Below are positions 19,499-30,968 of a stretch of 37,995 nucleotides of DNA, one piece after another. The DNA lies in the NCBI GenBank assembly GCA_964519355.1, contig CAZFJW010000001.1:1-37995 (forward strand), read 5' to 3'. Position numbers and translations under genes: made by a program. The DNA is from an uncultured Gammaproteobacteria bacterium. Its GTDB lineage: Bacteria > Patescibacteriota > Microgenomatia > Levybacterales > GWA1-39-11. Under the pieces are notes generated by a model. It did not search any database, was not told the DNA's origin, and saw only the letters and a program-made list of their open reading frames with translations. Position 1 is the stretch's first letter; the number at the start of each line of letters is the position of its first letter.

Positions 19499-20608
19499 TT
19501 ACATATTTGGAAGAAGACTCTTCCCGCTTATAAGGCGTGCGATATCAACAATTGTAACAACCGCCATTAATCCCAGAAGAAGCGCAAGGCCTACCATGTG
19601 AGCATACGATTCATATTTCGGATTAACTTTTTTCCTGGTAACAACTTCTATCAAAATAAAGAACAATCTTCCTCCGTCAAGTGCTGGGATAGGCAGAATA
19701 TTAAGAACTGCCAAGTTCAAAGATAATAACGCCATGAACCAAAGTACTGCATCAATTCCAAATGATACTGCCTCACCCGTAAGCTGTGCGACTCCAAGAG
19801 GACCAGCAACTCCTTCTGGTTTTTGGCCATGAATTACACCCTCATATACCATGCTTCCAAGTCCATGCACAATAACCCAAGAAAACTTTAGAGCTTCCCA
19901 TGTACCATAAACTGGCGCCTCCAGAAGCGAATATTTACGGACTTCTATTGCACTAATACCGATACCAATTGGACCTTCTCCCTTTGGAAAGTCTTTTCTT
20001 GGAACAAGGGTTACTTCGTTTTGCTTACCATCACTCACGTACACAATCTTCGTAGGCTTACCCAAATGTTTTCTTGTCTCTTTTACAAATTCTTCTGTTT
20101 TTACTATTTTTACCCCATCAACAGATATAATTTGATCATCAATTTGGAGGCCCGAAACGGCAGCCGGACTATTCGGAAGAATTTCTGTGACCCTGATGTG
20201 ATCAGATGGAACTGCAACTCCTCGAGCAGCAAAAAGATAAGAAATAAGACATACTGCGAGGAGAAAATTCATAACAACTCCCGCAATTACAACTGAAAGG
20301 CGCTGCCATGAAGGACGTGCAAAAAATGCACGTTTAAGATCTCCGCCCTTCGCCTCATCCTTTTTATGAGTTATCTTACCTCCCCCAGCATCATCTTCTC
20401 CAAATAATTTTACAAATCCTCCGATTGGCAAGAGATTAATAGAATACAGAGTTTCACCAATTCTTTTGCCCCAAATACGCGGTGGAAATCCATATCCGAA
20501 TTCTTCAACTTTTATTCCGAGTTTTTTGGCTACAATAAAATGTCCGAATTCATGGATAAGAACAAGAACAGAAAGAATGAGAATAAAAACAAGTGCAGTT
20601 ACAAGCAT
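19499..20608 (-). CDS. rseP: Site-2 (M50) zinc metalloprotease RseP
   Basis: HEFGHF motif in TM1, a central PDZ domain and a C-terminal LPIPALDGG motif. TGtTATACT (-10 at 20615-20620, minus strand) lies 6 nt upstream. Confidence 0.9.
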   Translation of the reverse strand: MLVTALVFILILSVLVLIHEFGHFIVAKKLGIKVEEFGYGFPPRIWGKRIGETLYSINLLPIGGFVKLFGEDDAGGGKITHKKDEAKGGDLKRAFFARPSWQRLSVVIAGVVMNFLLAVCLISYLFAARGVAVPSDHIRVTEILPNSPAAVSGLQIDDQIISVDGVKIVKTEEFVKETRKHLGKPTKIVYVSDGKQNEVTLVPRKDFPKGEGPIGIGISAIEVRKYSLLEAPVYGTWEALKFSWVIVHGLGSMVYEGVIHGQKPEGVAGPLGVAQLTGEAVSFGIDAVLWFMALLSLNLAVLNILPIPALDGGRLFFILIEVVTRKKVNPKYESYAHMVGLALLLGLMAVVTIVDIARLISGKSLLPNM

Positions 20609-20629
20609 TTAGATAGTATAACAAAATGA

Positions 20630-20718
20630 GTAGTGTGTAGAAAGTAGTATGTACTATGAGCACGCAAGAAGGACCGTCGTACTGCTATTGCATGCTTATG
20701 CTGCATGATGCAGTACTA
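20630..20718 (+). repeat. ORF-less miniature copy A of the heptad-repeat inverted element
   Basis: Left arm is GTAGTGT GTAGAAA GTAGTAT GTACTAT (20630-20657). Right arm is ATGCTGC ATGATGC AGTACTA (to 20718), resembling the right arm at 30934-30961. It fills the rseP-tsf intergenic space and overlaps the tsf stop codon. Confidence 0.6.
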
Positions 20719-27773: not shown

Positions 27774-27803
27774 TTGACACATGCATTGATATTCTCATAA
27801 GAT
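27774..27803 (+). promoter_or_regulatory. Sigma70-like promoter TTGACA-18-TAAGAT (leaderless configuration)
   Basis: The -10 box ends 6 nt before ATG 27810. Confidence 0.5.
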
Positions 27804-27809
27804 ATCTGT

Positions 27810-28667
27810 ATGAAGAAAAAATCCGCAAGAAAAGTAACACGCAGAGAGCAGAATAAATTCCTCCACTCCGTACGCCTCTTTAGAGGAGACGCAATGGTGA
27901 CATTACTACTTGCAATAGTTGTCATTTCAGCAGTTTTTTTCGTGGGAGGCGCACTTCCCCAGCAATCCCGTGACACTCAAGATCTTTCAAATGAAGGCGT
28001 TATTGACGAAGACTCGCTCTCCTCTTCAACCAACGGCAATCAACTGCAGCTTAAGACCTTAAAATTCAAAAAATGTTCATCAATTGCCGCAGTCAGCATG
28101 ATGCTCGATCGCTCAGGATCTATGGGCAATGATGGAAAAATCACCAAACTCAAATCAGCAACCCTGTCATTTGCATCAAATTTTGCAGACGACTCGGTTA
28201 TTGGAATTCAGTCTTTTGACTCAAATGACATACGTGAAGACGTTCCTATATCCTACTATAAAGATGTAAAAGATTTGGTCGTAACAAAAGTTAATGCACT
28301 CACCCCAGGCGACAAAACCCCCACGTATCGAGCCCTGCAATTCTCTCGCGATATTTTAATACCCGCAATACCAAAGTTCAGTGACCGAACTTTTAATTTT
28401 ATCTTCCTCTCAGACGGCCTCCCCGTTCCGCCCCAGACAGAAGACCCACGAGGATACTCACCCAATCCTGCTGATGAAATTAAGGCTCTTGGAGTAACTG
28501 TGTACACTATTGGAATCTTCGGACCTGCAGATGCTGTTGCAGGAGCTGAGCTGCTAAAAAGCATTGCATCATCTCCTGATAATTATTTTGCTACGCCAAC
28601 GGGTGACGATTTATCAAGTATTTATGCTGCAATTGGAACAAAAATTTGCAGCAAGGCAACAAAGTAG
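27810..28667 (+). CDS. Anchored von Willebrand factor A domain protein 1
   Basis: Basic leader ...LFRG then DAMVTLLLAIVVISAVFFVGG. MIDAS residues are DRSGSMG, GDKTPT and FLSDG. Confidence 0.8.
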   Translation: MKKKSARKVTRREQNKFLHSVRLFRGDAMVTLLLAIVVISAVFFVGGALPQQSRDTQDLSNEGVIDEDSLSSSTNGNQLQLKTLKFKKCSSIAAVSMMLDRSGSMGNDGKITKLKSATLSFASNFADDSVIGIQSFDSNDIREDVPISYYKDVKDLVVTKVNALTPGDKTPTYRALQFSRDILIPAIPKFSDRTFNFIFLSDGLPVPPQTEDPRGYSPNPADEIKALGVTVYTIGIFGPADAVAGAELLKSIASSPDNYFATPTGDDLSSIYAAIGTKICSKATK

Positions 28668-28762
28668 TTTGTATAGTGTAGTATGTGGAATGGAGAATGT
28701 ATGATGCGCAATCTTTTTCAGATCAAGCATAATTCCTAATACATAATTCATTGTACAAAACC
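28664..28762 (+). repeat. ORF-less miniature copy B of the heptad-repeat inverted element
   Basis: Seven in-phase heptads GTAGTTT GTATAGT GTAGTAT GTGGAAT GGAGAAT GTATGAT GCGCAAT span 28664-28712, with G1 and T7 invariant. Right arm is CATAATT CCTAATA CATAATT CATTGTA CAAAACC (28728-28762). The left arm overlaps the vWA-1 stop codon. Confidence 0.7.
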
Positions 28763-28769
28763 CCAAATA

Positions 28770-28799
28770 TTGACAACCCCGACACATACTATCTAGAAT
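28770..28799 (+). promoter_or_regulatory. Sigma70-like promoter TTGACA-18-TAGAAT (leaderless configuration)
   Basis: The -10 box ends 5 nt before ATG 28805. Confidence 0.5.
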
Positions 28800-28804
28800 G
28801 ATGT

Positions 28805-29791
28805 ATGCCCGCTAAATCTTCTCGTATTCGGAGAAAAACAAAAACTGTCAAGAAAAAAACATCAGTAAAAAAACCCGCTTCATCGCTTTGGTTTTTTCCA
28901 AATTCTCTTAAAGTTCTTAAGGGTGATGCCTCAATCTTTATATTATTTGGAATAATACTTATCGGCGGACTCTTTATGGCTGGTGGCTTTTTCCCTAGAG
29001 TCTCAACTGACACACTTAACACTGACGCTGGAGAATCACAAATTGATCCAGATTCTCTCCCAAAGGGCGACTCAAAAGAAGCACTGCAGCTCAAGACCCT
29101 CAAATTTAAAAGCTGTACCCAGGTCTCCGCAGTTGAATTTTTACTGGATAATTCAGGATCTATGGGAGGGTCAGGATTTGATCCTGCCAAAATGACCAAC
29201 CTCAAAGCGGGTGTTACAACGTTTTCAGAAAAATTATCTGACACATCGGTTATAGGACTGAGAACTTTTTCTGACTATACAACCCTAGACGTTCCTTTCG
29301 GATATTACAAAGACAATAAGTCCTCCTTTGCTACAGCAATTGCTGGAATGACTCCTGATGGATCTACGCATCAAAAGTCAGCTTTTGAGGCAGCCAAAAC
29401 AGATCTCGAAGGTGCAGTCACAAAATATCCAAAGTACGATTTTAATCTCATATTCTTTTCTGATGGAATTCCAGAAACTGCAGCGGGAAATAGAACTTGT
29501 ACAGGCACCGTGTGTGATCCATCAAATCCTGCAGGATGTAGATGCATGGCACCATCCCAAGACCCAAGAGCAGTTGCAGAAGAAATCAAAGCAATTAAAA
29601 ACTCATCAGGCAGCAATATAAGAATATTCTCAATTTTGCTGTACGATCCAGTTCGTGATAGTTTTGCCGAAACCGAATTTAAGGCTCTTATGAAAAGTGT
29701 TGCAACGGATTCTTCAACATACTTTGAAACAACCGATCCAGATGATTTAAAGAGTCTTTTTGATTCTGTTATCAAAAAAGTTTGTGGATAA
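28805..29791 (+). CDS. Anchored von Willebrand factor A domain protein 2
   Basis: A 40-aa basic leader ...LKVLKG then DASIFILFGIILIGGLFMAGG. MIDAS residues are DNSGSMG, PDGST and FFSDG. It has a Cys-rich insert CTGTVCDPSNPAGCRC and is a tandem paralog of 27810-28667. Confidence 0.8.
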   Translation: MPAKSSRIRRKTKTVKKKTSVKKPASSLWFFPNSLKVLKGDASIFILFGIILIGGLFMAGGFFPRVSTDTLNTDAGESQIDPDSLPKGDSKEALQLKTLKFKSCTQVSAVEFLLDNSGSMGGSGFDPAKMTNLKAGVTTFSEKLSDTSVIGLRTFSDYTTLDVPFGYYKDNKSSFATAIAGMTPDGSTHQKSAFEAAKTDLEGAVTKYPKYDFNLIFFSDGIPETAAGNRTCTGTVCDPSNPAGCRCMAPSQDPRAVAEEIKAIKNSSGSNIRIFSILLYDPVRDSFAETEFKALMKSVATDSSTYFETTDPDDLKSLFDSVIKKVCG

Positions 29792-30550: not shown

Positions 30551-30585
30551 GCAGGATGTAGCATGTAGAACGCAGTATGCAAAAA
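30551..30585 (+). repeat. Left heptad-repeat arm flanking the four-helix-bundle gene
   Basis: GCAGGAT GTAGCAT GTAGAAC GCAGTAT GCAAAAA. The ATG at 30577-30579 lies inside the fourth heptad. Confidence 0.7.
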
Positions 30586-30945
30586 ATCCAGTCATTTACA
30601 GACTTAAACGCCTGGAAAGAAGCGCACGTCCTCGTTCTCAATATCTACAAAGAAACGAAAAAATTTCCCGATGATGAAAAATTTGGACTTACCAACCAGA
30701 TGCGAAGATCTGCCGTCTCAATAACTTCAAATATTGCAGAAGGTTTCTCAAGAAAGGGAACGAAGGAAAAAATCCAATATTGTTATTTGGCTCTTGGGTC
30801 TCTAGCCGAACTACAAAATCAACTTGTAATTTCAAGAGATATTGGTTATATTTCTAATACAGATTTTCAATTACTCGCAGAGAAATCAATTATAGTTAGC
30901 AAATTAATTAATGGGCTTATTAAATCAAAATCGCATACAACATAA
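30577..30945 (+). CDS. Four-helix-bundle protein (23S rRNA intervening-sequence protein / Avd family)
   Basis: FTDLNAWKEAH...FPDDEKFGLTNQMRRSAVSITSNIAEG...LGSLAELQNQL is characteristic of this family. Confidence 0.85.
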   Translation: MQKIQSFTDLNAWKEAHVLVLNIYKETKKFPDDEKFGLTNQMRRSAVSITSNIAEGFSRKGTKEKIQYCYLALGSLAELQNQLVISRDIGYISNTDFQLLAEKSIIVSKLINGLIKSKSHTT

Positions 30946-30968
30946 TTCATACTACATTCTTCAATTAT
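30934..30968 (+). repeat. Right heptad-repeat arm flanking the four-helix-bundle gene
   Basis: CATACAA CATAATT CATACTA CATTCTT CAATTAT. Its reverse complement matches the left arm at 20 of 30 positions plus one G-U, with blocks of 12 and 6 bp. It contains the stop TAA (30943-30945) and abuts the glyA ATG. Confidence 0.7.

Follow-up and report, generated by a model that had tools for sequence, protein, structure and literature searches.

Two paralogous VWA genes (27810-28667 and 28805-29791) are separated by a 137-nt spacer in which two arrays of 7-nt units face each other in inverted order, and in which the list of open reading frames (ORFs) holds none of at least 60 amino acids (aa). The question raised by this locus is what the segment is and whether it is kept for a function. 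The window, that is, the whole stretch of DNA analysed, is contig C1 (37,995 nt) of the 1.23-Mb, 121-contig genome of a candidate phyla radiation (CPR)/Patescibacteria-type organism, labelled G000 in the comparisons. The segment very probably belongs, in a gene-less and non-autonomous form, to a family of palindromic, heptad-armed elements whose gene-bearing members (cassettes) encode a four-helix-bundle (4HB) protein. On balance, it is read here as a selectively retained member of this family, with arms that would serve as recognition arrays, probably for the pentameric 4HB protein. The parts of the element and its gene-bearing relative in the window are as follows.

28664..28712, plus strand: left arm, seven 7-nt units (from the sequence, the unique (G.....T)x7 run, the period-7 score and a register comparison with cassettes)
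28713..28727, plus strand: loop CTTTTTCAGATCAAG, 15 nt (from the sequence and comparison with other copies)
28728..28762, plus strand: right arm, five 7-nt units (from the sequence; period-7 z=4.25; Tandem Repeats Finder (TRF) row 28728-28751, period 7)
30551..30968, plus strand: ORF-bearing relative (cassette), 1.8 kb downstream of the element (PF05635, E=5.6e-37)

The left arm reads GTAGTTT GTATAGT GTAGTAT GTGGAAT GGAGAAT GTATGAT GCGCAAT, every unit (7/7) opening with G and closing with T; five GTAKNAW-type units (28664-28698) are followed by GTATGAT (28699-28705) and then by GCGCAAT, and the TAG stop of the first VWA gene (vWA-1; 28665-28667) falls within the first heptad. The right arm, CATAATT CCTAATA CATAATT CATTGTA CAAAACC, is the reverse complement of GTANNAT units, so that inverted arms of 7 + 5 tandem units, and hence terminal inverted repeats, are present. 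Only the right arm was detected by TRF (score 34). The heptads of the left arm, their invariant positions, the 15-nt gap, the extent of the right arm and the enclosed stop codon had been given in a preliminary description of the segment, and all letters and coordinates proved correct. For the right arm its letters stood and its register did not, since the reverse-complement GTANNAT pattern fits best one base further on, at 28729-28756. The loop core TCTTTTTCA(G/A)AT was common to another gene-less copy of this genome, in the ybeY-dnaX spacer, and to the orthologous spacer of a related metagenomic species (L114).

The period-7 column score of the spacer was compared with those of 1000 dinucleotide-preserving shuffles. 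The spacer scored 37/49 against 27.0 ± 1.5 in the shuffles (z=6.6; 0/1000 as high), the right arm alone reached the z given above with p=0.001, and periods 5, 6, 8 and 9 gave no signal in the spacer (z from -1.8 to 0.4). An origin by chance, or by simple slippage during replication of AT-rich spacer DNA, with no relation to the cassette, would agree with the 7-nt indels by which the orthologous spacers differ and with the statement in one report (PMC4679880) that heptanucleotide repeats are the commonest longer simple repeats in many bacteria. This explanation is scarcely credible against a period-7 z of this size with matched arms in inverted order, one unit type at about seven loci (cassette included), position-specific units such as the inner GTATGAA/GTATAAA, and arrays that are coupled to 4HB genes, as described below.

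A run of seven (G.....T) units occurred once in the whole genome, at 28664-28712, and runs of at least five units three times, one of them being the cassette right arm. When (GTANNAT)x4 was searched with at least 17/20 matches, 10 hits were obtained genome-wide versus 0-1 in shuffled genomes, and the same loci were recovered by a motif-free period-7 scan (8 hits versus 0-2 in shuffles). About 7 GTAKNAW loci were thus found against about 0.4 expected (C1:20630, C1:28664/28729, C1:30551/30935, C13:7059/7142, C15:16857/16939, C66:3508, perhaps C77 and C80), all sharing this one unit type in inverted arrays and being mutually divergent in sequence. The copy on C13 fills a divergent spacer, with one arm toward each start, and one further copy lies in the window:

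20630..20657, plus strand: half-degenerate copy between tsf and rseP (GTAGTGT GTAGAAA GTAGTAT GTACTAT)

Read in the sense direction of rseP, this copy precedes TGTTATACT-N6-ATG. The preliminary description had staked its reading on a 7-nt periodicity beyond dinucleotide shuffles and on further copies in the genome; as both were found, neither ground for giving it up arose. The motif-free scan also scored, level with true elements, a period-7 run inside an ORF start (C66:3603-3650, CTTCTTG/CTTCTTA) that encodes a hydrophobic, signal-peptide-like stretch.

The cassette consists of a left arm at 30551-30578 (GCAGGAT GTAGCAT GTAGAAC GCAGTAT), a gene at 30577-30945 for a 122-aa PF05635 (23S-rRNA-IVS/Avd-type; IVS, intervening sequence) 4HB protein, the only copy in the genome, and a right arm at 30935-30962 on the minus strand (GAAGAAT GTAGTAT GAATTAT GTTGTAT); its arms pair with a z of about -7. 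The unit type of the gene-less element matches that of this resident cassette, GTAKNAW being present at 28664 and at 30551/30935. As the preliminary description had noted, the right arms have a string in common: ACATAATTCAT was found in both, and these are two of its three occurrences in the 1.23-Mb genome. Start- and stop-type landmarks also agree. The GTATGAT unit at 28699-28705 occupies the spot where cassettes carry their GT-ATG start unit; in cassettes the stop codon is part of a right-arm unit C(C/T)TAATA, and the TAA at 28737-28739 (unit CCTAATA, 28735) stands at that stop position. A short frame is thereby placed exactly at the 4HB ORF position:

28701..28739, plus strand: 12-codon ATG..TAA frame, MMRNLFQIKHNS* (read from the sequence)

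This frame was not conserved in L114, where GTATCAA replaces GTATGAT; it was accordingly rejected as a gene and is taken as a positional relic or chance.

The same two forms were seen in relatives. By a pattern search of 60 related genomes, in which loci were compared individually (L numbers) and each plus-strand array was paired with the next minus-strand array, 16 pairs with arm gaps of 0-51 nt, five pairs with gaps of 352-368 nt and a few wider ones were obtained, and 5/5 pairs of the second class enclosed a 124-127-aa homologue of the 4HB protein of the window. The arms mostly have 4-6 units (mode 5), with GTATGAA or GTATAAA as the typical innermost unit; about five units per arm with GT-ATG and TAA inner units were found in the window element as well. 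Across 29 cassettes, drawn from as many genomes of the order, the 50 nt preceding the ATG and the 50 nt following the stop both showed period 7 (mean z 2.4 and 2.6; z>3 in 13/29 and 12/29, respectively), while other periods, and controls 400 nt away, were silent. The unit sequences of the cassettes vary widely (GGTTTCA, GGGCACA, TTAGGGA, AGCGACT, CATATCT and others), and the arms within one cassette match. At L080 (G056:C4), the right arm, which follows the 4HB ORF, consists of seven exact CATATCT units. Heptad arrays of the type seen in the window were also found to flank ORFs other than 4HB genes (L034:2077-2641, L065:724-1243 and L025:920-1575), namely those for an unknown protein of 154 aa, for rplK and for a dCTP-deaminase-like protein; each case may be two adjacent solo arrays and not a single element.

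By the common unit type, the start and stop landmarks, the two size classes and the insertion described below, the claim of the preliminary description that the segment is an ORF-less miniature of the 4HB element was borne out. It may have originated by loss of the ORF from a cassette, or may be an empty module; when the loops of four copies were compared with the 4HB ORF for ORF remnants, local alignments were no better than those of shuffles. Like miniature inverted-repeat transposable elements (MITEs), repetitive extragenic palindromes/bacterial interspersed mosaic elements (REP/BIME), Correia elements and pneumococcal repeat units (RUP), it is short, gene-less and intergenic, has inverted arms and has a longer gene-bearing relative in the genome. 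Unlike MITEs, which come as many near-identical copies with a transposase parent, it has only about seven divergent copies, its gene-bearing partner is PF05635 and no known transposase, its arms are arrays of repeat units, and its orthologous copy is constrained across species.

Whether the segment arrived in the spacer as a unit was examined in the vWA-(vWA)-uppS-glyA neighbourhood, which is conserved in the family. In the window, the element is bordered by the following features.

27810..28667, plus strand: vWA-1 gene, 285 aa (ORF list; PF00092 VWA, E=1.3e-10)
28763..28804, plus strand: conserved CCCAAATA block and vWA-2 promoter (promoter scan, 11/12 matches)
28805..29791, plus strand: vWA-2 gene, 328 aa (ORF list, domain search)

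The promoter, TTGACA (28770-28775)-N18-TAGAAT (28794-28799), begins where the preliminary description had put its TTGACA, and its -10 hexamer ends 5 nt before the ATG at 28805, so that vWA-2 has a leaderless-type start. The vWA-vWA spacers of G023, G002 and G027 hold only the stop codon and TTGACT-N17/18, -10 hexamer (TACTAT in G023 and G002, TATACT in G027), N6 and start codon, and in G009 the two genes are only a few bases apart. About 95 extra bases lie between stop codon and -35 in G000, in its sister species G001 and in the metagenomic species L114/L168; present in G000, G001 and L114 and absent from G023, G002, G027 and G009 between the same neighbours, the element is a lineage-specific insertion in three species of a genus-level group, and the other genera are without it there. 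No target-site duplication of the kind left by MITEs was visible at the borders (AAAGTAG / CCCAAATA), filled and empty sites being too diverged for comparison.

Elsewhere, complete 4HB cassettes abut the VWA ortholog in six other genomes, in either orientation, and in G035 and G007 the cassette ends a few bases before the -35. The gene-less copies of relatives usually fill their spacer, from about 4 nt after the upstream stop to 4-9 nt before the next ATG, and were found between co-directional, divergent and convergent genes. At the uppS-glyA spacer of G001 (L152, G001:C65), the cassette encodes a different 4HB subfamily (MSQSQNSKVYDLGDRT...) between arms of the form (AAATCTA)n...(TTTAGAA)n; a cassette has thus been replaced at a fixed site.

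Whether the inserted segment has been under constraint was judged from three orthologs of the spacer (G000, G001 and L114/L168). The proteins of G000 and L114 are 70% (vWA-2), 78% (vWA-1) and 79% (uppS) identical, and 4-fold sites of these three genes are 32-33% identical versus 28% expected at random, so that silent sites are saturated. Nevertheless the spacers are 84% identical over 128 aligned bases, part of which is owed to the promoter and the block upstream of it; identity to L114 was about 81% in the left arm, 93% in the loop and 89% in the right arm, and 7-nt indels distinguish the two spacers in each arm. The downstream vWA-2/uppS spacer could not be aligned between the same two species apart from the -10 region. 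The G001 copy was much more diverged than the L114 copy and folded no better than shuffles. A metagenome scan returned 3 loci, one of them usable. At strain level, the spacer was identical in 10/10 contigs from different samples that carry an identical vWA-1 protein, which gives no sign of recent mobility. From these alignments, the spacer element is kept under purifying selection in two of the three species, and it is more likely functional than inert.

An inert relic would be a MITE-like leftover of the 4HB cassette or a selfish palindrome, inserted once, with its conservation due to the adjoining promoter or to exchange among copies. The lineage-specific insertion, the small number (about 7) and divergence of the copies, the replacement of one unit type by another at the same sites, the lack of conservation of the mini-frame and the strongly diverged G001 copy, which folds no better than shuffles, all accord with it. 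It does not account for a non-promoter left arm and loop conserved to the extent given above despite saturated 4-fold sites, for a neighbouring spacer that retains only its -10 region over an equal distance, or for ten identical independent assemblies. This explanation fits the G001 copy and not the conservation between G000 and L114, and for the window element it is considered improbable, slightly more so than the RNA stem discussed next.

Because the arms are inverted, the segment can also be drawn as a hairpin:

28668..28759, plus strand: predicted imperfect, G-U-dependent RNA stem-loop, 92 nt (fold, -25.3 kcal/mol)

The stability of the sense RNA was modest against dinucleotide shuffles (z=-1.8) and higher against simple shuffles (z=-3.1); the antisense RNA folded at -17.9 kcal/mol, and single-stranded DNA at -9.5 (z=-0.4). 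An autonomous RNA stem-loop after the vWA-1 stop, acting in 3'-end formation or stability, as an IVS-like RNase III substrate, or in termination or attenuation between the paralogs, and independent of the 4HB protein, was weighed. It would agree with the position between stop codon and next promoter, with the more stable, G-U-dependent sense fold, with an outer 11-bp helix that owes its complete pairing in G000 to differences from L114 in both arms, with the fold of the L114 ortholog (z=-2.7), and with the presence of an RNase III gene (rnc) in the genome; IVS stems are RNase III substrates, and IVSs with and without an ORF exist (PMC4990558).

The family as a whole argues otherwise. RNAalifold gave no consensus structure (0 pairs) for an alignment of 15 copies, and pairing in mirror register was found in 72.5% of cells of these copies versus 73.9% in shuffles, without covariation; no covariance model was built for this reason. 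Among 17 gene-less copies, complementarity between facing units at positions 4 and 7 did not exceed that between units of unrelated copies, and only position 5 was complementary above random (0.6 versus 0.33); the variable positions make periodic mismatches. The sense/antisense asymmetry is not a family trait: the antisense fold is the more stable in L114 and in 8/11 relatives' copies between co-directional genes. The G-U bias of the sense strand was consequently set aside as evidence for an RNA role, since it holds in G000 and fails in L114 and the relatives. The terminator scan of 28660-28800 gave no site, the AT/GU-rich stem being followed by CAAAACCCC with no T-run. No Rfam match reached the gathering score over the whole window, and the best hit of a permissive scan of 28500-28900 was an unrelated miRNA model at E=1. 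Copies between divergent and convergent genes, and a 7-nt period for which a stem gives no reason, add to the case against it, and we regard an autonomous RNA stem as unlikely.

The positions that vary and those that do not point to motif arrays instead. Unit positions 1-3 and 6 were kept in >80% of units, the orthologous spacers differ by whole units (7-nt indels), and what is conserved is, as far as the aligned copies tell, G1 T2 A3 and A6 of each unit, the fixed 7-nt spacing and the inverted arrangement of the arrays, not the stem. A different use of such motifs would be as a promoter-type signal, the units, which read CATAAT-A on the strand that faces a gene, forming series of hexamers similar to -10 boxes or an AT-rich block of UP type for leaderless genes, with the inverted layout as a by-product. 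The right arm stops 4-9 nt short of the ATG in many relatives that have no further promoter there, in the divergent spacer on C13 an arm faces each start, and this lineage places -10 hexamers 5-6 nt before the ATG. In the window, however, a separate near-consensus promoter follows the element at 28770 and the left arm is turned toward the vWA-1 end, which has no need of a promoter; elsewhere one copy lies between convergent genes, and unit types such as GGGCACA, AGCGACT and TTAGGGA are unlike -10 boxes. A promoter-type signal is thus held to be very improbable.

If the arms are recognition arrays, their distribution should be informative about the reader. PF05635 genes were found in 46/61 related genomes (up to 14 per genome), and over the 61 genomes array counts rose with 4HB counts (Spearman 0.49, p=5e-5), a co-occurrence statistic calculated, like the one that follows, without phylogenetic correction. 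For the ybeY-dnaX spacer, compared in 41 genomes, period-7 z>3 was obtained in 18/26 genomes with a 4HB gene versus 1/15 without (Fisher p=1e-4), the exception being G020, and contrasts were also seen within genera g2, g3 and g9. Gene-less copies appear, in the genomes compared, to occur almost only where the PF05635 family is carried. At this spacer, which in G000 holds the gene-less copy C15:16857-16959 (L127:1398-1500), the unit type differs from genome to genome (L128-L138, L174-L202), so that either the site has been repeatedly re-occupied or the unit type turns over. G001 has the AAATCTA/TTTAGAA type at both its uppS-glyA cassette and its ybeY-dnaX copy, and G000 has the GTA type at both cassette and copy.

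The selectively retained family member with recognition arms, preferred here, would work as follows. The arms would be arrays of recognition units at fixed 7-nt spacing rather than a stem selected for pairing. A constant period across unrelated unit sequences suggests a reader with fixed subunit spacing, and the 4HB protein is the only constant partner; five units per arm would fit one unit per subunit of a pentamer. S23p is a toroidal pentamer (PMC4990558), and Avd, a barrel of five subunits with positive charge, acts together with RNA (PMC6182149). By analogy with these proteins, the predicted pentameric 4HB protein of the cassette, with about five units per arm, is a plausible candidate for the reader, an assignment to which we give somewhat less than even credence. 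Bound or unbound, the module would be placed to insulate the two vWA paralogs, and on read-through transcripts of vWA-1 the arms could pair into the 92-nt imperfect stem just past the stop codon.

Several observations weigh against this reading. Besides the lack of phylogenetic correction and the share of the promoter and upstream block in the spacer identity, the sense fold of G000 does beat the antisense fold, which suits an RNA role. G031 has 51 array hits with one weak 4HB match, G003 has 5 array hits and G020 one array without any 4HB gene. When gene-less copies were compared with resident cassettes by shared 6-mers, a clear match emerged for G039 and G040 alone, the AT-richness of the sequences leaving the other genomes ambiguous. 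In the species of L168, the one 4HB gene that was compared, the neighbouring one, is frameshifted and has lost its right arm, and the vWA spacer copy is conserved.

The frameshifted gene lies at L168:5753-6160, between uppS and glyA, with glyA starting directly after it, and the same 88-aa product was called in at least 5 assemblies. The idea that a copy decays once orphaned, suggested by G001 (no GTA-type cassette, copy diverged), was weakened by L168, where the cassette is broken and the copy conserved.

In a wider form, which is offered tentatively and by analogy, PF05635 proteins might be heptad readers, each protein lineage having its own unit type, with the gene-less arrays as targets in trans. 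Taken together, these arrays would then be a small network of switches or insulators between cistrons or, alternatively, the places where the 4HB protein copies or moves the element. Such a role would explain the loss of arrays in genomes without the gene, the paired change of unit type in sister species and the constant period of 7. The function of the rRNA-IVS 4HB proteins has been open since the early 1990s, as has the meaning of bacterial intergenic heptamer repeats. To these questions the element brings a short, defined candidate target, 35 nt long, on which purifying selection can be measured; natural controls, in the form of empty sites, of genomes that lack the gene and of a sister species whose units are of a different type; and the genome-level coupling between arrays and gene family. 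Together they open the question to direct tests. Compact CPR genomes may use heptad modules at gene boundaries. A literature search found no paper describing the gene-less form or a link to PF05635.

TRAP, which reads GAG/UAG triplets, and HutP, which reads UAG-N4 repeats and whose sites thus have a 7-nt period, are ring-shaped RNA-binding proteins. They are compared here for mechanism only: one repeat unit is read per oligomer subunit, and their folds are unrelated to the 4HB. The short tandemly repeated repetitive (STRR) heptamers of cyanobacteria are comparable intergenic heptamer repeat arrays. TAACTGA heptamer arrays are known from intergenic spacers of Beggiatoaceae, Cyanobacteria and Bacteroidetes, where they are direct repeats still in want of an explanation (PMC4679880). 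Like the element, they consist of intergenic 7-nt units, often end a few bases before a start codon, and have had a binding protein proposed for them; they are described as a single unit repeated in direct orientation, and no connection with a gene family was reported for them, whereas the element family forms inverted pairs of many unit types tied to PF05635.

The closest described counterparts of the element are the 23S rRNA IVSs, which carry an S23p ORF in Coxiella and Leptospira and lack it in Salmonella (PMC4990558). Like the element, they have complementary termini around an S23p/PF05635 4HB gene or around a short loop only, are sporadically distributed, have been suspected of mobile origin since 1993 and have a protein of unknown function. 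In CPR bacteria, too, rRNA insertions with PF05635 ORFs have been described (10.1101/2024.02.27.582315). The element differs in lying between VWA genes and not in rRNA helix 9, 25 or 45, the 23S gene being on contig C14, and in having arms of tandem 7-nt units with periodic mismatches instead of a near-perfect 28-bp stem. No GTA-type heptad arrays were found in the genome's own 23S gene. This gene (C14:1079-4835, L126) has 3757 nt versus the 2925 positions of the model, that is, about 830 nt of inserted sequence.

Two further observations were made on neighbouring genes. In G004, G005, G006 and G008, the dnaX match is interrupted after residue ~65 by about 70 nt that leave the frame open, an insert of about 24 codons that is specific to this lineage. 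Leaderless-type starts, with the -10 hexamer 5-6 nt before the ATG and without a Shine-Dalgarno sequence, were seen in the window at 27774-27810, 28770-28805 and 20608-20630 (minus strand), and this layout is kept at the VWA genes and rseP in relatives (L107-L110).

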